64,000 nucleotides of DNA from Candidatus Dormiibacterota bacterium (GCA_963717185.1 CAVQVY010000038.1:103798-167797); one strand, 5' to 3'; positions 10,132 through 61,669 are shown, numbered from the stretch's first letter. Translations and numbers: made by a program. Notes: generated by a model from the letters alone, not told the origin.

Positions 10132-12820
10132 TCAGAGCAGACGCGGCTCGAGGCCCTCGGTGCGGATCTGGTACTGCTCGAGAGCCGCGGTCACCACGTG
10201 CCGCGGCACGCGCTCCTCATCCGCCAGCGCGTCCAGGGCGGCCACGGTGATGTTGGCCGCATCCACCTCGAAATGGCTGCGCAGCGCGGCCCGTGTGTCG
10301 CTTCGCCCGTAGCCGTCGGTGCCGAGCGGGATGAATCGCTGCGGCACGAACCGGGCCACCTGCTCGGCCACGGTCTTCTGGTAGTCGCTGACCGCGACCA
10401 CGGGGCCCTGGACGTCGCGCAGCTGCTCCTCGAGGTACGAGGTGCGCTGCGGTCCGTCGGGGTGCAGACGGTTCCAGCGCTCCACCGCCAGCGCGTCGTT
10501 GCGCAGCGCCAGGTAGCTGGGGACGCTCCAGAGGTGGGCGGCGACGTCGTGCTCGAGCAACATGCGCTGTGCCTCCAGCGCCGCCTGCATCGCGGTGCCG
10601 CTGGCGAAGATCTGGATGGTGTGTGGCCTGCTCCTCCGGGGCGGCCTGGAAACGGTACAGGCCATGCACGATGCCGTCCTCGACGCCGTCGGGCATCGCG
10701 GGCATCGGGTAGTTCTCGTTGTAGAGGGTCAGGTAGTAGAAGACGTCCTCGCCCGCTCGTACATGCGGCGCATGCCGTCGCGCACGATCACCGCCACCTC
10801 GTACGCGAACGCCGGGTCGTACACCTCGCAGTTGGGGACCGCGGAGAACAGCAGTGGTGAGTGGCCGTCCTGGTGCTGGAGGCCCTCGCCGTTGAGCGTG
10901 GTGCGCCCCGCGGTCCCGCCCAGCATGAAGCCTCGCCCGCGTGCGTCTCCGAATGCCCAGACCAGGTCGCCGACGCGCTGGAAGCCGAACATGGAGTAGT
11001 AGATGTAGAAGGGGATCATCGGCTCGCCGTGGGTGGCGTACGACGGTGCCGGCGGCGGTGAAGGTGCCCATCGCACCGGCCTCGGTGATGCCCTCCTCGA
11101 GCAGCTGGCCGTCGCGCGCCTCCTGGTAGCTGAGCACCATGTTGGCGTCGACGGGCTCGTAGCGCTGGCCGAACGGCGCGTAGATCTTGACCTCGCGGAA
11201 GAGTGCGTCCATACCGAAGGTGCGGGCCTCGTCGGGGATGATCGGCACGATCCGGCTGCCCGACCTCGGGGTCGCGGAGCAGGTTGCGAAGGATGGCTCC
11301 GAACGCCGCGGTGGTCGACGCCGGCCGGCCGGCGCTTCCCTTGACAGACTCCGGCCGACACCGAGTCGCCGGGGACGGTGAGCGAGCCGGGTGCGCACCA
11401 CCCGCTTGGGAAGTGGTCCGCCGAGCGCGAGCCGGCGGCTCATCAGGTAGTCGATCTCCTCGGACCGACTACCGGGGTGGTAGTAGGGTGCGATGCCCTC
11501 GTCGAGCTGCTTGTCGCTGATGGGCAGCTGCAGCTTGTCGCGGAAGGCCTTCGAGCTCGGTGTCGCCGATCTTCTTGATCTGGTGGGTGGCGTTGCGGCC
11601 TTCGAAGAGCGAGCCCAGCGTCCAGCCCTTGACGGTGTGCGCCAGGATCGCCGTGGGCGCGCCCTTCTGCTCCAGCGCAAGTCGGTAGCGCGCTGTAGAG
11701 CTTGCGGTAGTCGTGGCCACCGCGACGGAGATGGCGGAGGTCATCGTCACTGAGGTGCTCGACGAGCCGGCGCAGACGGGGGTCGGGGCCGAAGAAGTTG
11801 CTCGCGGATGTACGCGCCGGTCTCGGTCGAGTACTTCTGGAACTGACCGTCGTTGGTGGTGTTCATCTTGTCGACGAGCACCCCGTCGACGTCGCGGGCC
11901 AGCAGCGGGTCCCACTCCCTGCGCCCAGATCACCTTGACCACGTTCCAGCCGGCGCCGCGGAACACCGACTCCAGCTCCTGGATGATCTTGCTGTTGCCG
12001 CGCACCGGACCGTCGAGTCGCTGGAGGTTGCAGCTGATCACGAACACGAGGTTGTCGAGCTGCTCTCGCGCCGCCAGTGACAGCGCCGCGGTCGGCCTCC
12101 GGCTCGTCCATCTCACCGTCACCGAGGAACGCCCAGACGCGCAACTCGCTGGTGTCGGCGATCTTGCGCTGGTAGAGGTAGCGGTTGAAGCGGGCCTGGT
12201 AGATGGCGTTGAGCGGGCCGAGACCCATCGACACCGTCGGGAACTCCCAGAAGTCCGGCATCAGGCGCGGGTGCGGGTAGGAGCTGAGGCCCTTGCCGCC
12301 GACTCTCGTGGCGGAAGTTGTCGAGGTGCTCCTCGGTGAGCCTGCCCTCGAGGAAGGCGCGCGAGTACATGCCCGGCGCCGCGTGCCCCTGGTAGTAGAT
12401 CTGGTCACCGGAGCGGCCGTCGTCCTTGCCACGGAAGAAGTGGTTGAACCCGACCTCGTACAGCGACGCCGACGACGCGTACGTGCTGAGGTGTCCGCCG
12501 ATGCCGTCGCTGCGCTTGTTGGCGCGGGTCACCATCACCGCGGCGTTCCATCGGACGATGCGGCGGATCCGGCGCTCCATCTCCTCGTCGCCGGGAAACC
12601 ACGGTTCCTCCTCGGGCGGGATGGTGTTGATGTAGGGCGTCGAGACCATCGCGGGAACGCCGACGTTGAGACTGCGCGCGCGCTCGGCCAGCTTGCCGAT
12701 CACGAAGCGGGCGCGCGACACCCCCTCGGTGGCGACCAGCGTGTCGAGCAACTCCAGCCACTCCTCGGTCTCGGCCGGGTCGCTGTCGGGCAGCTGCTGC
12801 AGGAAGGCGTCGAAGGTCAT
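10132..12820 (-). pseudogene. aceE: pyruvate dehydrogenase E1 component (AceE), reading frame interrupted at least 5 times in this sequence
   Basis: AceE homology is continuous across ORFs 12119-12820, 11863-12432, 11469-12122, 10217-11680, 10729-11361 and 10132-10665, each in a different frame ([24 protein letters not shown]...; [23 protein letters not shown]; [15 protein letters not shown]; [31 protein letters not shown]; C-terminal ...ALEQYQIRTEGLEPRLL). Total span of about 896 codons matches full-length E1. Confidence 0.8.
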
Positions 12821-12868
12821 GTCACCTGTCCGTTGGATTGGTGCGGCGTCGACCCCCAGAGTAACTCC

Positions 12869-15436
12869 CTATGTTCGCGCGCCCACCTCGGCTTCAGACG
12901 CGTGGTCCGCGGCCTGGGCGCGCTGCAGGCGGAGGGTCTGGTCACAACTCTCGACGACCAGGCGGCGCCCCAACTCCTTCAGCTCCCCGCCCTCGAGCAG
13001 GCGGTCGGCGGCAGCGACCACGCCATCGTCGACGCGGTAGGCGGGGTACATCCCCGCGGTGAAGAACTCGGCCTCCTCCGCGGTGCGCTCACGCCAGTAG
13101 TGCGGCACCATCTCCACCCAGCGATCCAGGAACGGGGCGAACAGGTCCTGCTGGTCGCGCTCCTGGAGGCCTCGGATGAGCGCCTTCTGCATCGCCAGGG
13201 GCGTCTCGGGGTCGATGAGCCGCTCCCACGCCGCCTCTTTGGCGGCGGGCTCCGGGCGAGCCGCGGACGCCGCAGCCGCCTTGCGCAGCCCGACGTCGGT
13301 CCTGTCGCGCGCCAACTCGTCCGTGATCGCGGCCTCGTCGAGCCGGCCTGCCGCGGCCAGGCGGCGGATGAGGAACCAGCGCAGGTCCTGGTCCACGACC
13401 ATGCCCGGCGGAAGGTTCCGTCCCTCGAGCAGCCCGGCGGCCACGTCCAGCTGGGCGTCGCTGTCCGAGGTTGTCACTGTGGCGCGCAGTGCGGTCAGCT
13501 GGTGCGGGGTGCCCGGCGACGACTTCTGAAGGATGCGCTGGCTGGTCTCGTGCAGGAGAGCGCGCAGCGCGGGCCGGTTGCTGGGGTGGCTGTACAGCTC
13601 GACGGCGCCGATGGCCTGGCCGAGGATGTCGTCGACGATCGTGGGCACCGGCTCGTTGGGGGCATGACGCGCGACCAGGTCGATGTAGCGACTGGCCGGC
13701 AGCTCACCGTCGCGGGTCATGTCCCACACCGCCGCCCAGATCAGCGAGCGGGCGAGCGCGTCGTCGAGCTCGCTGAGATGGTCGATGACGGTCTGAAGTG
13801 GACACGTCGTCGAGCCGGATCTTGGCGAAGGTGAGGTCGCCGTCGTTGAGCAGCAGGAGTGCCGGACGGGCGCGGCGGCGGAGCGCCTCGAGCTCGGTGC
13901 GCTCTCCCGACACGTCGAGCTCGAGCCGTTCGGTGCGCACCAACCGCCCGTTGTCGTCGAGGTCGTACAGGCCGACGCCGACGCGGTGCGAGCGTAGCGT
14001 GGGGAACCTGCTGTTGGCCGCGGACTGCACGATGGTGCAGCTGTCGATCATCCCGTCGTCGGTGGTCTCCACCACTGCGTGGAGCACGTTCATGCCCGCT
14101 GTCTGGAGCCATTCACGGGTCCAGGCTGCGAGGTCGCGGCCGGAGTGGCGCTCCAGCGGCGCCAGGAAGTCGCGCAGCGAGGCGTTGGCCCACTGGTGCT
14201 CCTTGAAGTAGTCGCGCACACCACCGAAGAAGGCGTCCTCGCCGACCCAGGCGACCAGCTGGCGCAGCACGGACGCGCCTTTCGCGTAGCTGATGCCGTC
14301 GAAGTTGAGCCGGCCGGTGCTGACGTCGGGGACGTCGGCGGCGATCGGGTGGGTGGTGGGCAGCTGGTCCTGGCGGGCCGCCCACGACTTGTCGCCGTTG
14401 GCGAAGTCCACCCAGGCGCTCGTGTACCTGGTGGCCTCCGACTGGGCATCGTTGCCCATGTACGTGGCGAAGCTCTCGTTGAGCCAGAGGTCGTCCCACC
14501 AGCGCATGGTCACCAGGTCGCCGAACCACATGTGCGCCATCTCGTGGAGGATCGTGCCCGGCCCGCCACGCCAGCACGGTCGCGGGCACCGGGCCGCGGT
14601 AGATGGTGCTCTCCTCGTTGAAGGTGACGCACGCGACGTTCTCCATCGCGCCGGCGTTGAACTCGGGCACGAAGAGCTGGTCGTACTTGTTGCCGAACGG
14701 GTACGCATCTTGAACCGCTTCGCGAAGTGGGTCAGCCCCTGTTTGGTGATCTCGAAGATCTCGGCGTCGTCGAGGTAGCGGCGCAGCGACTGACGGCAGT
14801 AGAGGTTGAGCTCCACGCCCTCGTGCGTGTCGGTGACGCGCGCGTACGGGCCGGCCACCACCGCGACGAGGTAGCTCGACATCACCGGCGACTCCTCGAA
14901 CACCGTGGTGGTCGACCCGTCCGCATCCTCGGTGCGTGCCACGGGCGCGTTGCTGACCACCGTCCATTCCGACGGCGCCGTGACCTCGCAGCGTGAACGG
15001 GCCTTGAGATCAGGCTGGTCGAAGCAGGCGAAGACGCGATGAGCCTCGAAGGGCTCGCACTGGGTGTAGAGGTAGACCTTGCCGTCAGCGGGGTCGACGA
15101 CGCGGTGCAGTCCCATGCCGGTGTGGGAGTAGCGGCAGTCGGCGACCACGCGCAGCGTGTTGGCCGCGGCCAGGCCCGCCGAGGGCGATCCGGTTCTCAG
15201 AGAACGCCGCGACGTCGACGTCCCTGCCGTTGAGCACGATCTCGCGGACCGCCGCGGCCTCCAGGTTGATGAACGTGGAGGCGCCGTCCTGCGCGGCGAA
15301 GGTCGAGCTCGACCGCGCTGCGGAAGTTGTGCGCATCGGCCCCGCTGGTGAGGTCGAGCTGGATGTCGTAGTGGAGGCCGGAGATCAGGCTGACCCGCTC
15401 CTCGGCCTCGGAGCGCAGAAGATCGTCAGGAGTCAC
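12869..15436 (-). pseudogene. pepN: aminopeptidase N (M1 family), frame interrupted at least 3 times
   Basis: The N-terminus MTPDDLLRSEAEERVSLISGLHYDIQLDL is in ORF 15197-15436. The core with [27 protein letters not shown] zinc site is in 13704-15149, with the 14113-14967 frame alternating. The ERAP1_C-like C-terminal domain is in 12869-13729. Confidence 0.8.
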
Positions 15437-15440
15437 CGCC

Positions 15441-16640
15441 CTAGCCTATCGTCCCTGCGCGCCGCCTCTGCCGCGATCTCAACCGGCCCGTTGCAACGCC
15501 TGGTCCAGGTCGGCGAGCAGGTCCTCGAGGTCCTCGATCCCGACGGAGAGCCGGAGCAGCCCGTCCCCGAGGCCGATCCGGTGCCGCTCGTCGGTGGGCA
15601 CCGAGGTGTGGGTCATCAGCCCGGGGTGCTCGGCGAGCGATTCCACCGCTCCGAGCAACTCCGCGAGCGTGAACAGGCCTGAGCCCCTCGAGCACCCGGA
15701 CCGCCGCGGCCTGGTCGGCGAGCTCGAACGACACCATGCCGCCGAACACTCCGCTCATCTGGCGCAGCGCCAGCTCGTGCTGCGGGTGCGACTCCAGGCC
15801 CGGGATAATGCACAGCGCGCACCGCTGCGTGGCCCTCGAGGTGACGTGCGACTGCGAGGGCGTTGTCACTGTGGCGCTGCACGCGCAGCGCAAGCGTCTT
15901 GAGCCCGCGGAGCAACAGCCAGCAGTCGAACGGCGACGGCACGCCGCCGGCGGCGTTCTGGTGGAAACGCAGCCGTTCCGCGATGTCGTCGTCGCTGGTG
16001 ACCAGGCAGCCGCCGAGCACGTCGCTGTGGCCGCCGAGGTACTTGGTCGAGCTGTGCATGACGATGTCGGCGCCGAGCTCCAGCGGGCGCTGCAGGTACG
16101 GCGTCGCGAACGTGCTGTCGACCGCCAGGCCGGCGCCGTGGCGGTGGGAGGCGTCGGCGGCGGCGGCGATGTCGACGATGCGCAGCAGCGGGTTCGTCGG
16201 GGTCTCGATCCACACCAGCCGGGTGCGTTCTGTCATGGCCGCCTCGACGGCGCCGGGCAGAGTGGCGTCCACCGCGCTGAAGGTGACGCCCGTAGCGGCG
16301 CCATCACCTTGTCGAAGAGCCGGTACGTGCCGCCGTACGCGTCCTGCATGTAGACGACGTGGTCGCCCGGGTCGAGCAGCAGCATCGCGGTGGTCGTCGC
16401 CGCCAGGCCCGACGCGAACGCGAGGCCGTGCCGGCCCCCTTCGAGGGATGCGAGGCAGGTCTCCAGCTGCTCACGCGTGGGGTTGTTGCTGCGCGTGTAC
16501 TCGTAGCCGCCGTGGCGCCCGATGCCCTCCTGGGCGAAGGTCGTGGCCAGGTGGATCGGCTGGACCACCGCCCCGGTGGCCGGGTCCGGCCCCTGGCCGA
16601 CGTGGATGGCCCGCGTCGCGAAGCCGGGCCGCCGCGTCTC
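15441..16640 (-). pseudogene. Cys/Met-metabolism PLP enzyme (cystathionine gamma-synthase/gamma-lyase family, MetB/MetC-like), frame interrupted at least twice; start uncertain
   Basis: TRAIHVGQGPDPATGAVVQPIHLATTF lies upstream of ORF 16233-16568. The PLP-Lys region DIVMHSSTKYLGGHSDVLGG is in 15616-16272. The C-terminus is in 15441-15893. Confidence 0.7.
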
Positions 16641-16645
16641 CAGTC

Positions 16646-18014
16646 TCAGCGATGGTGGGCGACGTACTCGAGGAGGTCGGCACGGGTGATCACTCCCACC
16701 GGCCGATCGGCATCGATGATGGTGACCGCGGCCTCGCCGGACAGGAGTGGTGCGAACGCCTCATCGAGAGGCGCGTCTGCAGCGACCGACGTGAAGGGCG
16801 GATCCATGGCCGCCGAGACTGTCGCGGTCACCACTGCCGGGTCGCGGTAGACCCGGTCGAGCAGGGTGCGCTCGGCGATGCTGCCGACCACGGTGCGGTC
16901 GCCGTCGGTGCCCTCCACCACCGGCAGCTGGGAGATGTTGTAGCGCTGCATGAGGTCGATTGCCTCACCGACGGACTTCCCGGCCTCGACCGCAACCAAC
17001 GACGGGACCCTGCCGTCGGCTGCGTGCGTGGCCAGCACCTCGCGCACCCGCGCCGGTCCGAGGCGGTCGAGGAAGCCGTTCTGGCGCATCCACTCATCGG
17101 AGAAGAACTTGGTGAGGTAGTTGCGCCCGGTGTCGGGGAGCAGCACCACGATCACCCCGTCGGGGTCGGTGTCGGCCGCCACCACGAGCGCGGCGTGCAG
17201 CGCCATCCCCGCCGAACCGCCCACCAGGATGCCCTCCTCCCTGGCGAGCCGGCGCGCCGCCACGAATGCCTCGCGGTCCGTGACCTGGATGATCCGGTCG
17301 ACGATGGCGGGGTCGAACGTGCCCGGCCAGAAGTCCTCGCCGACACCTTCGATCTTGTAGGGGGCGATCGGCCCGGAGAAGATCGAGCCCTCGGGGTCGG
17401 CGCCGACCACCTGGACGGCAGGGTTCTGTTCCTTGAGGTACCGGCCGGTGCCACTGATGGTCCCGCCCGTGCCCACGCCGGCGACGAAGACGGTGATGCG
17501 CCCCTCCGTCTGGCGCCACAGCTCGGGACCGGTGGTCTGGTAGTGCGCCTGTGGGTTCTTGGCGTTGAAGTACTGGTTGGGCTGGAACGCGCCGGGGATC
17601 TCGCGAGAGAGACGGTCGGCCACCGAGTAGTACGACTGCGGCGACTCGCGGTCGACGTTGGTCGGGCACACCACGACGTCCGCGCCATATGCCTTGAGCA
17701 GGCTGATCTTCTCGGCCGACATCTTGTCGGGCATGACGAAGATCATCTTGTAGCCCTTGATCGCGGCCACCATGGCAAGGCCATGCCCGGTGTTGCCGGA
17801 GGTGGGTTCGACGATGGTCCCGCCCGAACGCAAGCTGGCCGCTGCGCTCAGCCTCCTCGACCATCCCCATGGCGATGCGGTCCTTGACGCTGCCGCCGGG
17901 GTTGAGCTGCTCGAGCTTGGCCAGCACGGTGGCGCCCACTCCGCGGGTCAGAGCGCGAAGCCGCACCAGGGGCGTGTTGCCCACCAGGTCGAGGATGCTC
18001 TCCGAGTACTCCAC
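16646..18014 (-). CDS. cbs: cystathionine beta-synthase with C-terminal CBS-pair domain (one frame change near 17820)
   Basis: N-terminus MEYSESILDLVGNTPLVRLRAL...LNPGGSVKDR is in ORF 17094-18014. The rest (GGTIVEPTSGNTGHGLA...CBS pair...LLEYVAHHR) is in 16646-17833. The junction looks like a 1-nt loss in a gcgcg run. Confidence 0.75.
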
Positions 18015-18053
18015 CGCCGCGATTCTAGGCGTGTCACGTGCCGCCGCCGGCGC

Positions 18054-20240
18054 TCACTCGGAGGTTGCGCCTGCGGGGAGGAGGTAGGCGCTGTCGATGT
18101 AGTCGTGCACCATCCGCGTCGCCGAGAAGCGCGGGCCGTTGGTGCGCAGCGATCGCTTGATGCGGCGCACCCATTCGTGCGGCACACCGTCGCTGTCACG
18201 CGGTGTAGAAGAGCGGGGCGACCTCATGCTCGAGGAGGTCGTACAGGGCAGCCGCGTCGCGCGTGTCCTGCACGCTGGGGTCGTAGACCGCGTCACCGGG
18301 GATCGCCCAGCCGTTGGCGCCGTCGTACGCCTCGGCCCACCAGCCGTCGAGAACCGAGAGGTTGAGGCCGCCGTTCAGCACCGACTTCATCCCACTGGTT
18401 CCGCTCGCCTCCAGCGGCGGGCGCGGCAGGTTCACCCAGAGGTCGCAGCCGGCCACGAGGTGTGACGCGATGGCGAGGTCGTAGTTGTCGAGGAAGGCGA
18501 CCCTCTCAGCGGCGTGAGCGAGCTCCTTGAAGGTGAACACCCCCTGCGCAGAGCGCTTGCCCTCCTCGTCGTTGGGATGTGCCTTGCCGGCCAGGATCAG
18601 CTGCATGGGCCGGTCGACGTTGGAGATCAGCTCGGCGACGCGGTGCGGCTCCAGGGTGAGCAGGTAGAGGCGCTTGTAGGTGGCCAGGCGGCGGGCGAAC
18701 CCGAGGGTCAGCGAGTTGGCGCTGAACCCGCGCTCGGCGGCGGCCACCATCTCGCGGTCCTCGCTGCGGGCCAGCCTGGTGGCAACGCTGCGGTCGCGCA
18801 CGTACTCGACGAACTCTCCACGCAGACGGCAGCGCAGCGCCCACAGCTCGGCGTCGGGGATGTCGTCCACAGGCGCCCACGTCTGCGGGTCGTCCGCGCG
18901 GGTCTCCAGCCGTCCTCGAGGTGGCGGTCGAGCAGCGCGCGCATCGGTGGCGCCATCCACGTGGGCAGGTGAACGCCGTTGGTGACGTGTCCGATCGGCA
19001 CGGTGTCGACAGGCCGCTCCGGGAACAGCGGCTGCCACATCTGCCGGGCCACCTCGCCGTGGCGGCGGCTCACCCCGTTGGCCGAGCGGCTCATCTTGAT
19101 CCCGAGCGGGGTCATCACGAACGACTCGTGCGGGTTCTCCGGGCGGGTGCGGCCCAGCTGGAGGAAGCTCTCGAAGTCCATGCCGATCTCGGCAGGAAAG
19201 TCGCCCATCACCTCGGCGATCTCGGCGACGTCATAGCCCTCGTTGCCCGCCGCCACCGGCGTGTGGGTGGTGAACACGGTGCGCTCGCGCGCGGCGGCGA
19301 AGGCGGTGTGGCGGTCGGCGCCGGCAGCGATGTCGCGGCGCGCCAGCTCGAGCGGCGCCAGCGCGGCGTGGCCCTCGTTGAGGTGGACGGTCGCCGGGTC
19401 CATGCCCATCGCGTCGAGCACCCGCATCGAGCCGATGCCGAGCAGCGCGTACTGCGCCAGCCTGATCTCCCGGTCACTCTCGTACAGCCGCGCGGTCACC
19501 CAGCGATCGGTCCGTGAGTTCTCGCGCCGGTCGGCGTCGAGGAGGAAGAGCGGGACGCGGCCGACCTGCACCCGCCAGACCTGCACCACCAGCTGGCGGC
19601 CGCGCAGGGGGACGCTCACGGTCAGCGGCTCGCCCGACGCGTTGCGGACAAGAGCGGCAGGAACACGATCGGGGTCCAGCGGGATCCAGTACTCGTGTTG
19701 GTAGCCGGTGCGGTCCATGCGCTGCAGGAAGTAGCCCTGGCGGTAGAGCAGCCCGACTGCGACCATCGGCACCGCCAGGTCGCTGGCCTCCTTGAGGATG
19801 TCGCCGGCGAGGACGCCGAGCCCGCCGGCGTAGATGGGCAGCGACGTGTGTACCGCGAACTCCGCACAGAGGAATGCGACGGGGTGCGCGGCGGAGGCGC
19901 GCCCCGGCATCGGCGGGCGCGCGCGGTCGGCCTCGATGGTGGCCAGGATCGCATCGGCCTGGCTCATGAGCTGCGCGTCAGAGGCGACTTGCTCGAGGGT
20001 CGCGGCCGACGACTCGAGCAGCAGCCGGACGGGGTTGCAGTTGCTGCGGTCCCAGCGCAGGGGATCGATGGCGGCGAAGAGCTCGCTGCCGCCGGGCGTC
20101 CAGGACCACAGGTAGTTGTAGGCGATGCGCGCGTATGCGGCCATCGGCTGGGGCAGCCGCGCCGCCAGGTCCTCGGCGGCACGCACCAGGTCGTAGCTGC
20201 CGTCGATCAGGCCGGGCGCCTCAGCGGCGGTCTCGGTCAT
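18054..20240 (-). CDS. glgP: alpha-glucan (glycogen/maltodextrin) phosphorylase, GlgP family (2 frame changes)
   Basis: The 510-aa ORF 18708-20240 covers the N-terminus and core (EFAVHTSLPIYAGGLGVLAGD; HLNEGHAALAPLE). C-terminal pieces are in 18196-19038 (NLPRPPLEASGTSGMKSVLNG, the PLP-Lys region) and 18054-18296. Confidence 0.75.
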
Positions 20241-20271
20241 AGAGGCGCGATGGTACGCAGGGCGTCGTCGG

Positions 20272-20967
20272 TCAGGCGGGGCTCAGCGTCGCGGTGATCG
20301 CATGCACACCCGCCACCGGGCCGCCGGCGTGGCCGAACACCGCCGTGCCCGCCACCAGGACGGTTGCGCCCGCCGCGGCGCAGGCGGCGGCATTGGCGGC
20401 GTCGACGCCCCCGTCCACCTCGAGCTCGGTGAGCAGCCCCCGGCGGTCGATCTCGCCGCGAAGCTCGGCGACCTTGTCCAGGGTATGGGGGATGAGCCGC
20501 TGGCCGCCGAACCCGGGGTTGATGGTCATCACCAGGGCGAGGTCGCAGATCTCCAGCACGTCGTGCAGCGCGCTCACCGGGGTGCTGGGGTTGATCGCCG
20601 CGCCGGCCCGGCAGTCCAGGGCGCGGATCGCCGACAGCGTCCGATGGAGGTGCGGCGACACCTCCTGGTGCACGGTGATCCCGTCGGCGCCCGCGGTCGC
20701 GAACGTCTCGAGGTGTCGCTCGGGCTCGCGCACCATCAGGTGCAGCTCGAGCGGCAGCGCCGTCTCGCGCCGCAGGGCGCGGACCGTGTCGGTGCCGAAC
20801 GTGAAGTTGGGCACGAAGCTGCCGTCCATGACGTCGATGTGGAGGCGGTTCACCCCACTCCCTTCAAGCGCGTGAACCGCGTCAGCGAGGTGGCCGAAGT
20901 CGGCCGCGAGCAGGCTGGGGGCGATGCACACGGCGTCTGCGCAGGCCTGCCAGGTCGTGCGGGGCAC
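20272..20967 (-). CDS. rpe: ribulose-phosphate 3-epimerase
   Basis: IAPSLLAADFGHLADAV...HIDVMDGSFVPNFTFG...GGVD. The true start may be an internal GTG a few codons downstream of the first Met. Confidence 0.8.
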   Translation of the reverse strand: MPRTTWQACADAVCIAPSLLAADFGHLADAVHALEGSGVNRLHIDVMDGSFVPNFTFGTDTVRALRRETALPLELHLMVREPERHLETFATAGADGITVHQEVSPHLHRTLSAIRALDCRAGAAINPSTPVSALHDVLEICDLALVMTINPGFGGQRLIPHTLDKVAELRGEIDRRGLLTELEVDGGVDAANAAACAAAGATVLVAGTAVFGHAGGPVAGVHAITATLSPA

Positions 20968-21040
20968 GGTTGCAGCCTACCGGATGCACGTCGCCTACAC
21001 CGTGCCGAGCCACGTTCGGAGCATGGCGAATCCCCGGAAT

Positions 21041-21056
21041 ACCGATGTGTATCGGT
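21041..21056. promoter_or_regulatory. perfect palindrome ACCGAT-GTGT-ATCGGT in the AT-richer rpe / histidine-kinase divergent region (candidate operator)
   Basis: The 160-bp intergenic region 20968-21092 is locally AT-rich (gcataaagttagtgtcgtaatggtg), which is unusual for this window. The palindrome lies about 40 bp upstream of the kinase start. Confidence 0.25.
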
Positions 21057-21092
21057 CCAGTCGCATAAAGTTAGTGTCGTAATGGTGGGAAG

Positions 21093-22326: not shown

Positions 22327-22333
22327 CGCGAGC

Positions 22334-23440: not shown

Positions 23441-23495
23441 AGGGTCAGCCGACCGGGGCCTCACGGATGTCGGGGACGCGGGTCGGACGCAGCTC

Positions 23496-24185: not shown

Positions 24186-24189
24186 CTCG

Positions 24190-25280: not shown

Positions 25281-25284
25281 CACG

Positions 25285-26885
<1,601 letters not shown>

Positions 26886-26889
<4 letters not shown>

Positions 26890-35056: not shown

Positions 35057-35077
35057 GTACACCGCGTCTAGCATCGC

Positions 35078-36961: not shown

Positions 36962-36983
36962 TCTCCAGCATCGACCGCGCGGC

Positions 36984-40103: not shown

Positions 40104-40199
40104 GCCCGGGCGAAACCTGAATCGCCGGAACAGGATCGTCACCCGCCCATCAGACGCTTCGTCAGCGACCGCTGCCATGTTGTCGCGAAGGCGCCCGGC

Positions 40200-41982: not shown

Positions 41983-41991
41983 CCCGGCTGT

Positions 41992-49780: not shown

Positions 49781-51376
49781 GTGGCAGCAGTGGACGCCGG
49801 CGGCGTGAATCGCCGGCAGTTCCTCAGGTACGTGGGCCGCGCGTCGCTCGCCGTGGCAGCGCTGGCTGTGCCCGGTTGCTCGACGGTGATGCGGTCGGTC
49901 ACCGGCAGCCCGTCTCGCACCACGACCTCCCCGCCGAACCGCGTGCCCCCCACCGACGCCGACTGGGCCGCGCTCGCCGGCCAGGTCGGCGGCAACGTCG
50001 TGCGTCCCGGCGATGCGATGTACGGACAGGCGGCGCGCCTGTTCAACCCGTACTTCGACGGCGACGCGAAGCCGCTCGGCGTCGTCTACTGCGCGTCGGC
50101 CGCGGACGTGCAGCGCACCATCGCCTTCGCGCGCACCCACGGTGTGCCGATGACCCCGCGCAGCGGCGGTCACAGCTATGGCGGGTACTCGGTCAGCGAC
50201 GGCGTCGTCTGTGACGTCACCCCGATGGCCGGTGTCGCGGTCAACCGTGACGGCACCGCGACCGTCGGCGCGGGCGCGCGGCTCATCGACGTGTACGCCG
50301 GGCTGGCGCAGCACGGGGTCGCCCTGCCCGCGGGCTCGTGTCCCACCGTCGGCTTCGCGGGCCTCGCCCTCGGTGGCGGCGTGGGTGTGATGGGTCGCAA
50401 GTTCGGGCTCACCTCCGACAACATCGTGGGCCTCCAGGTCGTGACCGCGGCGGGAGACCTGCTGACATGCGACGCGTCCACCAACAGCGACCTCTTCTGG
50501 GCCTGTCGTGGCGGCGGGGGCGGGAATTTCGGCGTGGCCACGTCGTTCACCGTGTCGACCCACCCGGTGTCCGCACTCGTCCTCTTCCAGCTGGCGTGGC
50601 CGTGGTCAGCAGCTGCCAACGTCGTGGCCGGGTGGCAGAGCTGGATCACCACCATCCCGGACGAGCTCTGGTCCAACTGCCACCTCCTGTCCACCGGGAT
50701 GCCGGGGCCGCCGTCGGTCACCGTGGGTGGCGCCTACGTCGGGGCTCAGGCCGCGCTGACCCCGTGGCTTGCCACCCTGCGGCAGGTGGTCGGCCTCGCC
50801 CCGACCAGCACGTCGGTCGGCACCCACGGCTACCTCGACGGGATGCTGGTGGAAGCCGGCTGTGGCGGGCAGAGCACCGCCTCCTGCCACCTGGCCCCGC
50901 AGGGCACGGTCCAGCGCGAGGCGGCGGTGGGACGGTCGGACCTGGTGCTGCAGGCGCTCGGCGCCGAGGCCATCGACACGCTCATCCAGGGCGTCGCAGG
51001 CCGCCAGGCCAACCCGGCCGCAACCACAGTGGCCGGCGTCGCTTTCGACTCCTTCGGCGGCGCCATCAACCGCGTTGCTGCCGACGCGACGGCGTTCGTA
51101 CACCGTGACGCGCTGTTCGGAACGCAGTACAACGCCACGTGGCCCACGGGCGCGTCGCCGGCGATCGTGCAGAGCAACGTCGACGGTCTCGACAACCTCT
51201 ACACCGCGATGCGACCGTACGCGAGCGGCTTCGCGTACCAGAACTACATCGATCCCAGGCTCGCGGACTGGGAGCACGCGTACTACGGCGCCAACCTGCC
51301 GCGCCTGAAGCAGGTCAAGGCGAAGTTCGACCCCGACGGCTTCTTCCAGTTCGCGCAGAGCATCCCCGCGGGGTGA
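49781..51376 (+). CDS. Tat-secreted FAD-linked oxidoreductase, BBE/VAO (FAD_binding_4 + berberine-bridge) family
   Basis: 531 aa, intact. Tat motif RRQFLRYVG; FAD-PCMH region RSGGHSYGGYS (His attachment site) and CPTVGFAGLALGGG; BBE-like C-terminus YQNYID...PDGFF. Confidence 0.8.
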   Translation: MAAVDAGGVNRRQFLRYVGRASLAVAALAVPGCSTVMRSVTGSPSRTTTSPPNRVPPTDADWAALAGQVGGNVVRPGDAMYGQAARLFNPYFDGDAKPLGVVYCASAADVQRTIAFARTHGVPMTPRSGGHSYGGYSVSDGVVCDVTPMAGVAVNRDGTATVGAGARLIDVYAGLAQHGVALPAGSCPTVGFAGLALGGGVGVMGRKFGLTSDNIVGLQVVTAAGDLLTCDASTNSDLFWACRGGGGGNFGVATSFTVSTHPVSALVLFQLAWPWSAAANVVAGWQSWITTIPDELWSNCHLLSTGMPGPPSVTVGGAYVGAQAALTPWLATLRQVVGLAPTSTSVGTHGYLDGMLVEAGCGGQSTASCHLAPQGTVQREAAVGRSDLVLQALGAEAIDTLIQGVAGRQANPAATTVAGVAFDSFGGAINRVAADATAFVHRDALFGTQYNATWPTGASPAIVQSNVDGLDNLYTAMRPYASGFAYQNYIDPRLADWEHAYYGANLPRLKQVKAKFDPDGFFQFAQSIPAG

Positions 51377-51389
51377 TGCAGCCGCGCGC

Positions 51390-52241
51390 TCAGTCGAAGA
51401 TCTCGGGGCTGTCCTTGCTGATCCGCTCGAAGATCGGCTGGAACTGGAACCAGCCGGCCAGGTCGAAACCCAGCTGGCCGCGGGTCTGCAGGGCTTCGTC
51501 GTGGCCGATCTGGCGCGGCTTGCTGCCGGCACCGGCGGCTGCCGAGTACGCCATCAGCTGCGACTGCGAGGTGCGCTCGAGGGTGAGGAACCACCACGCG
51601 GCACTGTCCACGCTGCCTCCGACGGTGAGCATGCCGTGGTTGCGCAGGATGACCGCCTTGTGGTCGCCCAGGGCCTCACCGATGCGCCGGCCCTCGGCGG
51701 CGTCGAGCACCACCCCGGTGTAAGTGTCGTAGACGCCGACGTCGTCGTAGAACGCGCAGGCGTCCTGGGTCAGCGGCTCCACGGTCAATTCCAGCGACGA
51801 CAGCGTCTTCCCGTACGGACCGTGCGCGTGTGCCGCGGCGATGATGTCGGGACGGGCGGCGTGCACAGCGCAGTGGATGGCGACCGCGGCGCCGTTGACC
51901 GCGCGGTTGCCCTCGACCACCTCACCATCGTGGGACACGCGCACGAGGTCGCTCTGGCGGATCAGGCTGAAGTGCATCCCGAACGGGTTGACCCAGTAGC
52001 TGTGGGGCTCAGCCGGGTCGCGCACGGTGATGTGCCCGGCAACGCCCTCGTCCATGCCCGCGCGGCTGAACATCCGGAACGCTGCCGCCAGGCGCACCTT
52101 GCGGTCGTAGCGCTCGTCGTCGACGTTGTCGAAGGTCGGAGGCTGCGGCAGGAACAACTCCCTGCCGGCGACCGCCTTGGCGGCCAGATCGTCCATCTCG
52201 GACTCCCACGGGTTGGCCGCCTGGCCGTTCGTGATAGTCAT
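51390..52241 (-). CDS. class II aldolase/adducin-family protein
   Basis: From MTITNGQ. Zinc-ligand motifs GHITVRDP, HCAVH and NHGMLTVGGSVD. Confidence 0.75.
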   Translation of the reverse strand: MTITNGQAANPWESEMDDLAAKAVAGRELFLPQPPTFDNVDDERYDRKVRLAAAFRMFSRAGMDEGVAGHITVRDPAEPHSYWVNPFGMHFSLIRQSDLVRVSHDGEVVEGNRAVNGAAVAIHCAVHAARPDIIAAAHAHGPYGKTLSSLELTVEPLTQDACAFYDDVGVYDTYTGVVLDAAEGRRIGEALGDHKAVILRNHGMLTVGGSVDSAAWWFLTLERTSQSQLMAYSAAAGAGSKPRQIGHDEALQTRGQLGFDLAGWFQFQPIFERISKDSPEIFD

Positions 52242-52276
52242 TTCGCACCCTCCCCGCAACCTGGCGGTTGATCGAC

Positions 52277-52351
52277 TGGAGCCGACGGTCAGGATTGAAC
52301 TGACGACCTACCGCTTACGAGGCGGTTGCTCTACCACTGAGCTACGTCGGC
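52277..52351 (-). tRNA. tRNA-Thr (anticodon CGT)
   Basis: rc gives GCCGACG-TA-GCTC-AGTGGTA-GAGC-A-ACCGC-CTCGTAA-GCGGT-AGGTC-GTCAG-TTCAATC-CTGAC-CGTCGGC-T-CCA. It is 75 nt with an encoded CCA. Confidence 0.8.
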
Positions 52352-52398
52352 GCGCGGCCCGGCGTCGCGCCGAACCGCACCTATGGTACCGGCGCCGG

Positions 52399-53300
52399 CT
52401 AGGGAAGCCCGGCGTGCGGGACGTCGACCTCGGTGGCGATCAGCACCGCCTCGCGGGACTCTTTGCGGTTGTTCTCGAAGTAGTCGGGCGAGCAGCAGAG
52501 CAGCAGGGTGCGGCCCGTCTCGCCGCCGAGCGCGCAGGCGAAGACGCCGAGGCCGCCTGGCGGCCGCACCTCATCGACGATCTCACCTCCTCGGGCCACC
52601 CGGATGCAGCGACCGCCGAGGCCGTCGGCGGCCCAGATGTGCTCTTCCGCATCGAGCGTGCAGCCGTCGGGGGCGACCCGGAGCTGCTCGAACGTGGTCA
52701 TCGCATCGCCGAGCGCGACCTCCGGACCCAGCTGCGCCCAGACTTCGCGATCAACCAGGGAGCCGTCCGGCGCGATGGTGAACGAGGTGTAGCGGTTGGC
52801 CAGGGTCTCGCCGACGACCAGGGTGGCGCCGTCGTCGGTGATCACTGTGCCGTTCGGGAAGATGAGCCCCTCCGCGGCGACGGTGACGCCACCGTCGGGG
52901 TCGACGCGCTTCAGCGACGTCGTCGACGGGGTGTCGAACGCGTAGAGGTCGAAGCCAAAGTCGCCCACCAGGCGCGACCCTGGCTGTCCACCACCATGTC
53001 GTTGAGCAGACCGGTGCACACGTCGGACAGGTCGGCGTGGACGGTCACCGCGCCGTGGGGGTCGCGGCGGAGCAGCCGGTGGTCGCGCATCGACGCCACC
53101 AGCAGCGAGCCGTCGGGCATCCAGCCGAGCCCGGATGGCTGGCCCTCGACGGCGAGCACCTCTGTCTCCTCGCCCTGCGGTGAGACGGTGAACACCGCGT
53201 GGCGGTACATGTCGGACACCCACCAGCTGCCGTCGCGCCAGCGCGGCCCTTCGAAGAAGGCGCCGCCCTCGACCAGGGTGCTGAACGCGCGATCGGCCAC
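52399..53300 (-). CDS. SMP-30/gluconolactonase/LRE-like (SGL) beta-propeller protein (one frame change near 52950)
   Basis: The N-terminus is in ORF 52911-53300 (FEGPRWRDGSWWVSDMY...). The rest is in ORF 52399-53223 (FPNGTVITDDGATLVVGET...). Confidence 0.65.
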
Positions 53301-53344
53301 GCCCGGACTGTAGCGGGCGGAGGCTCCGCTACCCTTGCCCTGCG

Positions 53345-55908: not shown

Positions 55909-57085
55909 ATGACCTTGATCGTCGGCATCGCGGACGAGTCGCGCGATGGTGAGCGCCGCGTCGCCGCCAGCCCGGCGAGCGTGCGTGCCCTGGTGGCGGC
56001 CGAGCACGAGGTCGTGGTGCAGAGCGGCGCCGGGGCTGCGGCGGGCTGGGCCGACGAGGAGTACACGGCGGCGGGCGCGACCATCGCGGCAACGGCCGCC
56101 GAGGTGCTGAAGAAGGCGTCGGTGCTCCTCTGCGTCCGCGGCAGCGGCGCCGGCGCGGCGACGTGGGAGGGGGTCGGCGAGTCGCACACCCTGGCCGGGC
56201 TGTTCGACCCGCTCGGCGAGCCCGCCGCGATCGAGAGGCTGGCCAAGCGTGGCGCCACGGTCTTCGCGATCGACCTGCTGCCGCGCATCACCCGCGCCCA
56301 GCCCATGGACGTGCTCTCGTCACAGGCGACGGTCGCGGGGTACAAGGCTGTGATCGTGGCCGCCTCCCTGTCACCGCGGCTGTTCCCGATGCTCACCTAT
56401 GCGGCCGGCACCATCCCGCCGGCCAAGGTGCTGGTGCTCGGCGCCGGTGTCGCCGGCCTGCAGGCGATCGCGACGGCGCGCCGCCTCGGCGCCAACGTCA
56501 GCGCCTACGACGTCCGCGCGGCGGTGCGCGAGCAGATCGAGAGCCTGGGCGCCCGCTTCGTCGACCTCGCGGACGTCGCCGCCGGCGAGGAGGACGCCTC
56601 GGGGTACGCGACCGGGGCGGACGAGGCGGAGCTGGCGCGCCAGCAGGAGGCGCTCGCCGCGGAGATCAGCGCAAGCGACGTGGTGGTGACCACCGCCCTG
56701 GTGCCGGGTCAGCGCTCCCCGATCCTGGTCACCGCCGCGGCGATCGAGGCGATGAAGCCGGGCTCGGTGATCGTCGACCTCGCCGCCGAGCGTGGCGGCA
56801 ACTGCGAGGGCACCGTCGCGGGTGAGACCGTGGAGATCGGCGGGGTGACCCTGGTCGGTGCCGAGAACCTGCCCGCCACGGTCCCGCAGGACGCCAGCCA
56901 GATGCTCGGCCGCAACCTCGCCAACTTCGTCATCCACATCGCCACCGACGGCGCCATCAACCTCGACGGCGACGACCCGATCGTGCAGGGGACCCTGGTG
57001 CCCGCGGGGGGAAGGTCGTCAACGAGCGCGTCGCCGCCCTGGTCGACCCGACGAGGGCGGGCGCGTCCGCTGAGGCCGGCTCGTG
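55909..57085 (+). CDS. pntA: NAD(P) transhydrogenase subunit alpha part 1 (dI, alanine-DH-like); one frame change in a G-run at 57006-57011
   Basis: The dI domain with GAGVAGLQAIATARRLGA Rossmann is in ORF 55909-58323. The true C-terminus ...AGGKVVNERVAALVDPTRAGASAEAGS* ends at TGA 57083-57085 in the adjacent frame. The supplied 804-aa ORF is a frameshift read-through artefact. Confidence 0.75.
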
Positions 57086-57361
57086 AACATCGAGACCGGC
57101 CTCTACGTCTTCCTGCTGGCGTCGTTCCTCGGGTTCGAGCTGATCCGCCGCGTCCCCCAGCTGCTGCACACCCCGCTGATGTCGCTGACCAACGCCATCT
57201 CGGGCATCGCGCTGGTCGGCTCCATCGTCATCGTCGGCAGCTCGCGTTCGGTCACCACCACGGTGCTGGGAACCATCGCCATCGCAGCGTCGTCGTCGAA
57301 CGTCATCGGCGGCTTCCTGCTCACCGACCGGATGTTGCGCATGTTCAGGAAGCGCCGCTGA
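57083..57361 (+). CDS. NAD(P) transhydrogenase subunit alpha part 2 (small membrane subunit)
   Basis: 92 aa, 3 TM helices. GTGA overlap with pntAA; its TGA overlaps the pntB ATG. Confidence 0.75.
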   Translation: MNIETGLYVFLLASFLGFELIRRVPQLLHTPLMSLTNAISGIALVGSIVIVGSSRSVTTTVLGTIAIAASSSNVIGGFLLTDRMLRMFRKRR

Positions 57362-58831
57362 TGCGCGACACCATTGTCCAGTACCTCTACCTCGCGGCAG
57401 GCCTGTCGTTCATCTTCGCGATCAAGTGGATGACAGCGCCGACCACGGCGCGCCGGGGGGTCTTCGCCGGCGAGATCGGCATGGTGCTGGCGGTGGTGGG
57501 CACCTTCGTGCGTCCCGAGGTGACGCAGTTCACCTGGATCGTGGTCGGACTCATGGCAGGTGCCGCCATCGGTGTGCCGCTGGCGGCGTTCGTGCCCATG
57601 ACCGCGATGCCGCAGCGGACCGCGCTCTCGCATGCATTCGGCGCGGCCGCGGCCACGCTCGTCGGCGTGGCGGAGTACATCATCCGCCAGCCCCACCTCG
57701 ACCGATTCACCACGGTGGTGCTCGGCATCGAGGTCCTGCTGGGTGGCCTGACGGTGACGGGCAGCCTGATGGCGTTCGGCAAGCTGCAGGAGATCATCCA
57801 GGGGCGTCCCGTGGTCTATCGCGGCCAGAACGTCGTCAACCTGACCATCCTCGCCGTGGCGCTGGCCGGCATCGCGTGGCTGGCGATCGACCCGAGCATG
57901 GTGTTCGTCTTCGGCGTGGTGGTCGCCGCCGCGGTGGTCTTCGGGGTGCTGCTGATCATCCCGATCGGTGGTGCGGACATGCCCACAGTGATCGCGCTGC
58001 TCAACTCGTACGCAGGGCTGTCGGCCGTGGCCATGGGTTTCGCTCTCGACAACAAGGTCCTCGAGATCGCCGGCGCGCTCGACGGCTCGTCGGGGTTCAT
58101 CCTCGCGGTGGTCATGTGCCGCGCCATGAACCGCAACTTCCGCAACATCCTCTTCGGCGCCTTCGGCCAGGTGACCATGTCGTCGAGGTCACGGAGCGGA
58201 CGACCGGCCGGTGCGCAGCGGCACCAGCGTGGACGGCGCGGCCATCCTCGACGGCGCGCGCATGGTGGTGATCATCCCGGGGTACGGCATGGCGGTGGCC
58301 CAGGCGCAGCACAAGGTGCGTGAGCTGTCGGACGCTCTCGAGCGCAACGGCAGCGAGGTCCGCTTCGCGATCCACCCCGTGGCCGGCCGCATGCCGGGGC
58401 ACATGAACGTGCTGCTCGCCGAGGCGGACGTGCCCTATGACCACATGGTGGAGCTCGAGGAGGCCAACGAGCTGCTCTCCCGCGCCGACGTGGCGATCGT
58501 CATCGGCGCCAACGACGTCACCAACCCGGCTGCCAAGAACGAGCCGGGCAGCCCCGTGTACGGCATGCCCATCCTCGACGTCGACAGCGCGGGCAGCGTG
58601 CTGGTGATCAAGCGAAGCATGGCGCCGGGCTTCGCAGGCATCGGCAACGAGCTGTACTACCTGCCCAACACCACCATGCTGTTCGGTGACGCCAAGCAGG
58701 TGGTGGGCGCGCTGGTGAGCGACCTCGCGGAGATCCCGCTGAGACAGCACCCGGCCGCGCGTCAGCTCGTTGGTTCTGTCTCGCCCCCGCTGTCGACGTC
58801 CTGGATGAACCGCACCAGGCCCTCGAAATAG
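57361..58831 (+). CDS. pntB: NAD(P) transhydrogenase subunit beta (one frame change near 58190; the real 3' end is probably earlier than the ORF stop)
   Basis: The membrane domain is in the 55909-58323 ORF's other frame from MRDTIVQYLYLAAGLSFIFAIKWM. The dIII NADP domain is in ORF 58211-58831 (VIIPGYGMAVAQAQH...VIGANDVTNPAA...GIGNELYY). Confidence 0.75.
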
Positions 58832-59736
58832 GTTGCCTGGTCGTCGTACATGGCCATGTGGCTGCCGTTGCCGCAGAGCAGGAAGCGGCCGTTCGGCAGC
58901 TTCGTGGACAGCATCTCCATGTGCGCGGGGTCCATGGTGTCGTGGGTCGCGCCGATGACCAGCGTCGGCACGGTGATGTCGTGGAGGTCGGCGACCCGGT
59001 CCCAGTGCGCGAGCTTGCCGCGGCGCCGAGCTCGCTCGGGCCCTGCATCGGGACGTAGATCGACTGGTTGATGCGCGCGAATGCTCGGTTGGCGGGATCG
59101 GGCCATTCCTCAGCGGGCATGCGCAGCACGTGGTGCTCGTAGTGGTGCGGGATCAGCAGCTCCATGTAGCGCGGGTTCTCGTAGTCCCCGGCCGCCTCGA
59201 GCTGCTTGATCTCCGCGAGCGCCGCCTGGTCCATGGCCGGCATGAGGACCTCGTTGGCGTACGCGTTGTAGGCCGGGATGCTGGCCATCATGTTCGAGAT
59301 CACCAGCCCCTTCAGGTGGCGCTGGTGGCGCAGCGCGTACTCGATGGCGAGGATCCCGCCCCACGAGTGTCCGAGCAGGAAGAAGTTGTCCGCTGTCCAG
59401 CCCCAGCGCCTGCCGCACCTGCTCGACTTCGTCGACGAAGCGGTCGAGGTCCCACAGGTCGGGGTCGTCGGGCTGGTCGCTGTAGGCCGAGCCGAGCTGG
59501 TCGTAGTAGTAGTACTCGATGCCCGCCGCCGGCAGGTAGCTGTCGGCCGCCTCGAAATACTCGTGGGTCGCCGCCGGGCCGCCGTGGAGGAAGAGGAGCT
59601 TCGCGGTCGGGTTGTTGCCGACGCGCTTGGTCCAGACCCGGAACTCACCCTTGGGCGTGGTGATGGGGACCAGCTTCACCCCGCCGCCGAGCAGGTCGTC
59701 GCGACCTGAGTAGTCCAGGTACTGTGCCTCGTTCAT
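58762..59736 (-). CDS. pip: proline iminopeptidase (S33 alpha/beta hydrolase), 2 frame changes
   Basis: The N-terminus is in ORF 59110-59736 (LLFLHGGPAATHEYF). The nucleophile elbow GHSWGG is in ORF 58608-59648. The C-terminus is in ORF 58762-59106. Confidence 0.7.
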
Positions 59737-60249: not shown

Positions 60250-60365
60250 GCCGACAGCCTAGTCGGGGAGCCCGTTCGCTGTTCACAAGCCGTCAGATCG
60301 ACCGGTAACGGTGCCTCGCGGGTCTGGCCCGACGGCCCTGCGAGTCGCTACGATCCACCACGCCC

Positions 60366-61669
60366 ATGGACATTCAGGATGGTGTGGGACGGCGGATGGA
60401 GCCGGGCACGGGCGCGTGGGCGCTGCCTGCGTCTCAGATGCTCGTCGCCGACCTGGTCGAGGAGTTCAACTCGGCGCCCGACAGCGAGACGCTGGTGGCC
60501 CGCGTGCTTCATCGCGCCGTCCTGGAGACCCGGTCCGACCGCGCCGTGATCTCGTGGATCGACGGCGACGAGATGATCGTGGCCGGATGCCTCGACCCCT
60601 TCGGTGAGCCGGTGGTCACCGGCAGCCGCTGGCCGCTCGCCGGCGAGCAGGTGAGTGTCCTGGCCCTCTCCGCAGGGCGGTGCGGAGGCGGGGACGCTCG
60701 ATGGGACGGCCCCGGGCCTTGCCGACGCCAGCCCGGCGCTGCTCGACACCTATGCCGGCCTCAAGCAACTGCTGGTGGCGCCGGTGTCGGCGGCCGGCGA
60801 GCACACGGCCATCCTCTGTGTGAGCCGGCGGCGGGCCGAGGAGTTCGCCGCCGAGGACCGCGACGCGCTCGACGCCATCGCCCGCTCCGCCGCCCAGCCG
60901 CTCCGCGCTGCTCGGCTCGACGACCTGCTCGGCGCCGCGCTGGCAGAGCTGGGTGAACGGCTCGCCGGGGAGGAATCGGTGGAACGGGTCAAGACGGACG
61001 TCCTGCGCCTGGCCTCGCACGAGCTGCGCAGCCCGCTGACCGTCCTGCACGGCTACCTGTCGCTGATCCGCGGCGGCTTCTTCGGCGAGCTCCCCGGGCC
61101 GCTCGACGACGTCATGAAGATCCTCGAGCGCCGCACCGGGGAGATGAATGCGCTGGTCAACGACATGCTGCTGGCCGCCCGCATGGAGGACGATCCGTCT
61201 CCCGCGACGGCGGAGACCGTCGACCTCCGGTCCCTGGTGCGCGAGGCCGCCGAACTCGGTGGCACCACGCGCCTCGGAGCTGCACCGGCTGCATGTCGAG
61301 GTGCCCGAGGAGCCTGTGCTCGCTCGCGTCGACGCCCAGCGGGTGGTCCTGGCCCTGCGCAACATCATCGACAACGCCGTCAAGTACTCGCCCGACGGCG
61401 GCGACGTGACCTGCTGCGTCGTCGACGACCGCGAAACAGCCAGGATTCGCGTCGCCGACCACGGGCTGGGGATCGCCCCCGAGGACCGCGACAAGCTGTT
61501 CACCCGTTTCGGCAGGGTCGTGACCACCGCCAACTCGCACATCCCCGGGCTCGGGCTTGGCCTGTACTTCACGCGCGAGGTGGCGCGCCGCCACGGAGGC
61601 GACGTGGCCCTCGTCGACGGCGACGGCGAGGCGACCGTCTTCGAGCTGACCCTGCCGCTGGCGCCCTAG
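60366..61669 (+). CDS. cytoplasmic GAF-domain sensor histidine kinase, paralog of the 21093-22326 gene (2 frame changes)
   Basis: GAF is in ORFs 60366-60956 and 60655-61944. H-box LRLASHELRSPLTVLHGYLSLI. HATPase_c is in ORF 61148-61669 (DNAVKYSPDGG; ADHGLGIAPE; GLGLGLYF). Confidence 0.7.

Follow-up and report, generated by a model that had tools for sequence, protein, structure and literature searches.

The stretch of DNA analysed in this study, referred to below as the window, is 64 kb of one strand of a contig from a metagenome-assembled genome (MAG) of an uncultured soil Candidatus Dormibacterota bacterium. The reading frames of many of its recognisable genes, including aceE, pepN, opcA and zwf, are interrupted. 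We detected at least 83 frame-disrupting events across 23 genes of the window, and the comparison with intact relatives makes it very probable that these interruptions are uncorrected single-base consensus errors of the assembly and not mutations of the organism. An earlier reading made from the DNA alone (the sequence-only reading) had listed at least 24 genes in need of frame changes; all 22 genes that it named were confirmed and one that it had not listed was added, so that the total is 23 rather than 24. It had also left the choice between an error-ridden draft and a genome in active decay. The data presented here strongly support error, and decay was rejected on the basis of the private indels, their spectrum, the selection acting on the genes and the arrangement of the events in blocks.

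Relatives of the window and detection of frame changes

The G+C content of the window is 70% along its whole length, and an Rfam scan of it found two tRNA genes and nothing else. For relatives, the species-representative genomes of GTDB were scanned with an uninterrupted piece of the cystathionine beta-synthase gene of the window, and the window fell among MAGs of Candidatus Dormibacterota. The nearest contigs were L015 and L041 (MFD04580.bin.2.77), with L001-L005 more distant. L015 carries contig names of the Illumina/MEGAHIT type and was treated as a short-read relative. Additional syntenic contigs came from Joint Genome Institute (JGI) metagenomes, L081-L100 around leuS and L114 and L116 around cbs. 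The nucleotide identity between the window and all relatives compared was 77-88%; the best Cbs homolog was 98% identical as a protein, yet its contig was only 85% identical at the nucleotide level. The intact short-read references used to place indels were L015, L114, L115 and L116, and for the region 43.8-49.7 kb L082, L084 and L100.

Since about 90% of third codon positions are G or C in so GC-rich a genome, segmentation of the G+C signal at third positions (GC3) follows the reading phase, and we employed a Viterbi (hidden-Markov) segmentation of this signal. A GC3 filter applied to whole open reading frames (ORFs) overlooked the broken genes because frames were mixed within each ORF. Events were called with our own frameshift-aware protein-to-DNA dynamic programming, in which intact short-read orthologs were aligned with the window; the opcA/zwf/gnd stretch was aligned with the proteins of L116, L001 and L004. 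Further support came from nucleotide multiple alignments (three-way with L015 and six-way over 9.5-28.7 kb) and from Pfam profile coordinates. The main catalogue contains 80 events, namely 59 insertions, 17 deletions and four 2-nt events, and with three junctions identified afterwards the total rises to at least 83, including 60 insertions and 19 deletions.

In the part of the window from 1 to 10 kb the GC3 signal showed one phase per gene. Dozens of phase switches without intervening stops were observed at 10.1-20.3, 23.4-27.8 and 48.3-49.8 kb, while L015 showed exactly one phase segment per gene across the same four genes. When independent reference proteins were aligned with the window they converged on identical events. 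In the relatives the genes are full-length and in conserved order, with AceE of 892 aa, PepN of 857 aa, MetB of 386 aa, Zwf of 528 aa, OpcA of 363 aa, Gnd of 311 aa and GlgP of 728 aa.

The indels are private to the window and mostly isolated insertions

None of the exactly placed 1-bp indels between 10 and 27 kb occurred in the intact short-read relatives, of which up to four were compared, or in L041, and the indels at 43.8-49.7 kb were likewise absent from L082, L084 and L100. The comparison with orthologs, which the sequence-only reading had proposed as a check, thus found the relatives intact and every exactly placed indel private to the window. Insertions exceeded deletions (59:17 in the 80-event catalogue, binomial p = 1.4e-6; 60:19 with the later junctions) and nearly all events were 1 bp in length. 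No larger frameshifting deletions and no insertion sequence (IS) elements were seen in the window.

Homopolymer indels had been taken as the signature of the interruptions, and two of the examples given were found again: the extra C in kynU near 37210 was placed as an insertion at 37211, and the junction at the G6 run in pntAA is a 1-bp deletion beside that run, one of the few events adjacent to a homopolymer. As a general signature the homopolymers did not hold. Forty insertions could be placed exactly; 31 of them (78%) had no identical neighbour, against 50% under random insertion, and only 3 built a run of three or more. A run of at least four within 15 nt was found at 5 of 17 background events in the window, against 20% by chance. 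The homopolymer hypothesis was therefore rejected as the main cause. Spontaneous one-base insertions are mainly slippage duplications within runs, so that insertions of isolated bases are the opposite of the mutational signature. The private insertions created CpG in 50% of cases, against 23% expected. Both the avoidance of identical neighbours and the creation of CpG were measured for positions 10000-27200 of the window, and this insertion signature may be the mark of a specific basecalling or polishing fault.

The events are clustered in blocks that disregard gene boundaries

The distribution of the events along the window was strongly uneven, with three hot blocks:

10600-16700, block A: 25 private 1-bp indels (22 insertions and 3 deletions), 4.1 per kb, covering aceE, pepN, the metB-like gene and the spacer between the last two.
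24300-27150, block B: about 22 events, 7.7 per kb, in opcA, zwf and the start of gnd.
48200-49600, block C: 14 events (13 insertions and 1 deletion), 10 per kb, in the esterase gene on the plus strand and a small membrane-protein gene on the minus strand.

Frame changes in block C are so frequent that the GC3 model labelled it 'non-coding'. The three blocks hold 61 of the 80 events (76%) in 16% of the window, and the rate in the rest of the window was 0.35 events per kb. In 1-kb bins the 80 events gave a dispersion index of 3.9 and departed from a uniform rate with a chi-square p of 1.6e-23. The composition of the events differed as well, with an insertion to deletion ratio of 49:8 inside the blocks and 10:9 outside (Fisher p = 0.008). 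The second aldehyde dehydrogenase gene may represent a fourth small block.

The edges of the blocks fall inside genes, and the blocks cross gene boundaries, include both strands and contain one intergenic spacer. Since they disregard gene limits and strand and reach into a spacer, the clustering belongs to the stretch of sequence and not to particular genes; judged from position, the density of errors appears to track the stretch rather than gene identity. The sequence-only reading had described the interruptions as non-uniform. The non-uniformity is real, but its pattern is by block and not by gene. The genes that it had listed as clean, leuS, glgX, the BBE oxidase, the first aldehyde dehydrogenase (ALDH-1), the ligase and TopIB, were confirmed as clean. 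At the background rate the probability of no event is 0.42-0.44, so that a clean leuS and a clean glgX are expected. Other clean genes were those of TDO, the class II aldolase, a HAD hydrolase and a PrmC-like methyltransferase, together with rpe, pgl and all of 1-10.6 kb. The event-free first 10.6 kb has a probability of 0.02 at the background rate and is mildly unusual.

Purifying selection on the interrupted genes is intact

We asked where in the codon the substitutions of the window branch fall, counting as such a substitution a site at which the window differs while two relatives agree in a three-taxon alignment. In aceE the window branch carried 24 changes at codon positions 1+2 and 99 at position 3. 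The fractions of private substitutions at positions 1+2 were as follows, with a neutral expectation of about 0.67:

aceE: window 0.20, L116 0.21, L041 0.23.
zwf: window 0.26, L116 0.24, L041 0.21.
opcA: window 0.35, L116 0.52, L041 0.34.
pepN: window 0.29, L116 0.38, L041 0.28.
metB: window 0.23, L116 0.31, L041 0.28.

The window fractions are near or under those of the L116 (intact) and L041 branches, and a three-way alignment that included L015 agreed with this. These five genes together carry 43 frameshifts and showed no excess of neutral substitutions; private substitutions per site were not higher in hot-block genes than in clean genes. Substitutions arise several-fold more often than indels. 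A dozen frameshifts fixed by drift in one gene would bring neutral substitutions with them, and as none were observed there is no relaxed selection. Purifying selection on the frame-shifted genes is shown to be intact.

The corrected proteins were 85-94% identical to their closest orthologs and matched full Pfam profiles. The corrected aceE, pepN, metB, zwf and opcA contained no stops, and a single in-frame stop was found across all corrected genes, the TAG at 44241-44243 in the second aldehyde dehydrogenase gene. This codon had been reported earlier as a substitution. Its presence was confirmed; a substitution origin is less likely than an indel origin. The window reads GCC TAG AAC where the relatives read GCC AGC AGC, and the alignment suggests that the TAG is probably indel-derived, through insertion of a T, loss of a C nearby and a single mismatch, which takes fewer changes than four substitutions.

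Catalogue of events by gene

The interrupted genes and the events placed in them, along with one private event outside coding sequence, are listed in order along the window.

10135-12820, minus strand, aceE (pyruvate dehydrogenase E1): 11 insertions and 1 deletion, with 1-bp insertions at ~10630, 11041, 11262, 11357, 11383, 11553, 11689, 11800, 11920, 12093 and 12304 and the deletion at 10754.
12872-15436, minus strand, pepN (M1 aminopeptidase): insertions at 13797, 14559, 14986, 15174 and 15305; deletions at 14706 and 15000.
15461, spacer between pepN and the metB-like gene: private 1-bp insertion outside coding sequence, absent in four short-read relatives and in L041.
15482-16643, minus strand, metB-like pyridoxal-phosphate enzyme: four insertions, at 15680, 15796, 16288 and 16302, and a fifth that breaks the start codon, at 16643.
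16649-18014, minus strand, cbs (cystathionine beta-synthase): one insertion, at 17833.
18057-20240, minus strand, glgP-type alpha-glucan phosphorylase: insertion at 18201, deletion at 18904.
21093-22326, plus strand, GAF/histidine kinase 1: one insertion at ~21357, placed by the phase switch and by alignment with a 198-aa protein of L116.
24211-25307, minus strand, opcA: nine events at ~24388, 24477/24490, 24681, 24705, 24719, 24753, 24986, 25028 and 25075.
25288-26889, minus strand, zwf (glucose-6-phosphate dehydrogenase): eleven events at ~25695, 25713, 25864, 25940, 26020, 26114, 26293, 26380, 26475, 26535 and 26619.
26901-27822, minus strand, gnd (short 6-phosphogluconate dehydrogenase): insertion at 27105, from alignments and Pfam.
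27825-30662, minus strand, tal-pgi fusion: insertion at 30090.
30665-32500, minus strand, tkt (mammalian-like transketolase): 1-bp deletion near 30770, which shifts the final 25 residues (PAELMAAAGIDADAIVAAARALAREVH) into another frame.
36967-38198, plus strand, kynU (kynureninase): the insertion at 37211.
38237-40103, plus strand, HD-GYP-type (HD_5) protein 1: junctions at ~38710 (insertion) and ~39025 (deletion).
40200-41985, plus strand, HD-GYP-type protein 2: junctions at ~40785 and ~41443.
43759-45178, plus strand, second aldehyde dehydrogenase: at least 3 net frame changes, at ~43998, 44147 and 44362, and the TAG.
45256-46262, plus strand, polysaccharide deacetylase: one junction at ~45450-45465.
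48214-49217, plus strand, esterase: ten events, nine insertions at ~48244, 48340, 48409, 48457, 48598, 48804, 48822, 48865 and 48920 and a deletion at ~49036; Pfam Esterase after correction.
49236-49683, minus strand, small membrane protein, the gene unlisted in the sequence-only reading: four frame changes at ~49278, 49357, 49457 and 49533.
52402-53318, minus strand, SGL/SMP-30-like gene: deletion at 52966, on which four references agree.
55909-57074, plus strand, pntAA: 1-bp deletion at ~56999-57011, beside the G6 run.
57353-58831, plus strand, pntB: insertion at ~58195.
58763-59736, minus strand, pip (proline iminopeptidase-like hydrolase): insertion at ~59392, deletion at ~59020.
60309-61669, plus strand, GAF/histidine kinase 2: insertions at 60675 and 61252.

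Correction of these events restored the expected proteins. The corrected AceE has 892 aa, spans residues 1-892 of the L116 ortholog without stops, shares 92-94% identity with the orthologs of L015 and L116, and matches the Pfam families PDH_E1_M, Transketolase_N and Transketolase_C_1. PepN matched Peptidase_M1 (3-218 of 218) and ERAP1_C, and its insertion-deletion pair at 14986 and 15000 is mutually compensating. The corrected MetB-like protein covered Cys_Met_Meta_PP from 2 to 381 of 381, the corrected Zwf covered G6PD_N (1-183 of 183) and G6PD_C (1-295 of 296), and the second aldehyde dehydrogenase, for which the alignment contained up to 9 small indels, covered the Aldedh profile from 8 to 461 of 461. 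In several other genes the domains themselves lie in different frames. HisKA and HATPase_c of GAF kinase 1 were found in the downstream frame; HD_5 positions 6-87 and 95-169 of HD-GYP protein 1 do not share a frame, and the splits in the two HD-GYP genes were recognised from such profile positions or by comparing the paralogs with one another. In the deacetylase the frame changes between the membrane segment at the N-terminus and the catalytic domain, and the junction coincides with an 8-nt difference in length from the relatives. In pip, Abhydrolase_1 positions 3-69 and 69-105 are in different frames and the C-terminal part is in a third.

Further observations on the locus

Several features of gene content were recorded along the window. 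The pepN gene is absent from L001, L002 and L004, and a PHP-domain gene (22375-23440) is present in the window and L041 and absent from L116. On the short-read JGI contig L116 (10001-11543) Cbs was called as a 433-aa gene and a separate 46-aa gene, which points to a C-terminal frame change or divergence in that contig as well. The pentose-phosphate operon at 23499-32500 consists of tkt, the tal-pgi fusion (938 aa), gnd, zwf, opcA and pgl; its transketolase is of the short mammalian-like type and scored 568 bits to human TKT (3ooy). A cluster at 33603-38198 contains genes for a BON-domain protein, an ATP-dependent DNA ligase, a bacterial topoisomerase IB, tryptophan 2,3-dioxygenase and kynureninase. 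It is followed at 38237-41985 by the tandem paralogous HD_5/HD-GYP membrane proteins, which have a linker rich in Pro and Thr and, at the C-terminus, a Cys-rich repeat region. A 3.6-kb segment (49650-53290) with a BBE-type FAD oxidase, a class II aldolase, tRNA-Thr and the SGL gene is missing between the esterase side and leuS in L082, L084 and L100, and may be a small tRNA-adjacent insertion or deletion.

A related long-read MAG carries the same kind of events

The relative L041 is a long-read MAG from Microflora Danica. The catalogue to which it belongs was made solely from Nanopore reads, by metaFlye assembly followed by a single Medaka round, and the authors of the catalogue mention Nanopore-associated errors in lower-coverage MAGs (PMC12313526). 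We found 37 phase segments in 21 kb of this contig. Within positions 1-18300 of L041 (CAVVVH010000002.1) there were 35 private 1-bp insertions and 6 deletions; 69% of the insertions had no identical neighbour, and all were at positions differing from those of the window. The genes broken in L041 include pepN, metB, cbs, glgP, opcA and others. L002, which belongs to the same catalogue as L041, was clean. As a documented Nanopore MAG also lacks a concentration of events at homopolymers, such a concentration is not a defining feature for this pipeline.

Consensus error and the alternative explanations

Consensus indels in long-read assemblies are a standard source of fragmented gene calls, and near-finished R10.4 genomes need about 40-fold coverage (PMC9262707; PMC12007338). 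The window resembles such assemblies in that private 1-bp indels split conserved genes and correction gives full-length proteins. We infer that it was produced on a long-read platform and that its blocks were caused by low depth, strain mixture or failed polishing. A long-read metagenome assembly would leave blocks of insertions wherever local read support or polishing was poor, giving a background of about 0.35 indels per kb together with three kb-scale blocks of 4-10 spurious 1-bp insertions per kb, and gene callers would then split each affected gene. Certain observations weigh against this reading. No same-species sequence was found, and the closest relatives are only 82-88% identical at the nucleotide level. 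The spectrum, rich in insertions and avoiding homopolymers, is unlike the homopolymer deletions of textbook Nanopore error: the window has 76% insertions (60 of 79 classifiable events), 78% of those placed are isolated, and the events gather in three blocks. The creation of CpG by half of the insertions, where 23% is expected, speaks against it as well, and blocks rich in insertions with almost no extra substitutions are unlike raw-read error.

These last features, the near absence of extra substitutions beside the insertions and the avoidance of homopolymers, speak in favour of an artefact other than low depth, such as collapsed co-occurring strains, stretches missed by short-read polishing in a hybrid assembly or another data-processing fault. 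According to one report (PMC8445201), collapsed haplotypes produce apparent frameshifts in long-read assemblies. For strain collapse in particular, the inserted base matched no alternative allele of the relatives at two sites inspected by eye. We regard an artefact of this wider kind as unlikely, with an appreciable probability left to it. Genuine decay of the genome, of the kind known from Mycobacterium leprae and from symbionts that have recently become host-restricted, in which the frameshifts are real and central-metabolism genes are being lost, could account for the number of genes affected, the in-frame stop in the second aldehyde dehydrogenase and the unequal density of lesions among genes, and a second Dormibacterota MAG, L041, is also full of frameshifts. 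The evidence presented above makes it very improbable nonetheless. The private substitutions are dominated by third positions (0.20-0.35 at positions 1+2) despite up to 12 frameshifts per gene, and the indels number at least 83 where there is one stop codon. There are about three insertions to each deletion, nearly all events are of 1 bp, and most insertions are not of the slippage type, while natural pseudogene spectra are deletion-biased, of many sizes and concentrated at repeats. No indel is common to the window and any relative, and the events of L041 lie elsewhere. The blocks pay no regard to gene limits and extend into a spacer, and both the order and the set of genes match those of the intact relatives L116 and L114. 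Reductive evolution of the Mycobacterium leprae type likewise leaves many recognisable genes, including those of central metabolism, with interrupted frames. The window differs from it in having no relaxed selection, no deletion bias, no large deletions, no IS elements and no shared lesions, in having almost no stops and in its conserved order.

The third alternative takes the DNA as correct and supposes that programmed ribosomal frameshifting, transcriptional slippage or RNA editing keeps the genes functional. The corrected proteins are under purifying selection, and correct DNA would demand some such rescue mechanism; rescue by slippage or frameshifting, as with the poly-A tracts of endosymbionts, also involves frameshifted genes still under selection. 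The sites in the window share no common motif, most lie outside slippery runs, none is conserved and the orthologs are in frame at every one of them. Up to 12 sites per gene at 4-10 per kb, of both +1 and -1 type and with one of them intergenic, fit no known system; unlike the known cases they lie outside homopolymers and slippery sequence, occur at much too high a density and are partly intergenic. Recoding by these routes is thus extremely unlikely. The same very low probability attaches to an RNA-level deletion editing or high-frequency frameshifting of a new kind that would make full-length proteins from correct DNA, also in the L041 lineage; if true, it would mean that dozens of non-templated single-base insertions are tolerated in essential genes. 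Uncorrected consensus error thus remains by far the most probable source of the interruptions.

Consequences for the interpretation of the window

Calls of pseudogenes, split genes, fusions, short ORFs or 'non-coding' sequence in the window are unreliable before polishing, and most of all at 10.6-16.7, 24.3-27.15, 43.8-44.4 and 48.2-49.6 kb. The public species-representative contig CAVVVH010000002.1 is flagged with the same defect. Setting private indels against the codon positions of private substitutions can separate error from decay in other MAGs for which there are no reads. The value of the result is practical and not biological, as a quality warning for every other finding made from this window; regarded as biology of the bacterium, the frame interruptions are not a novel feature.

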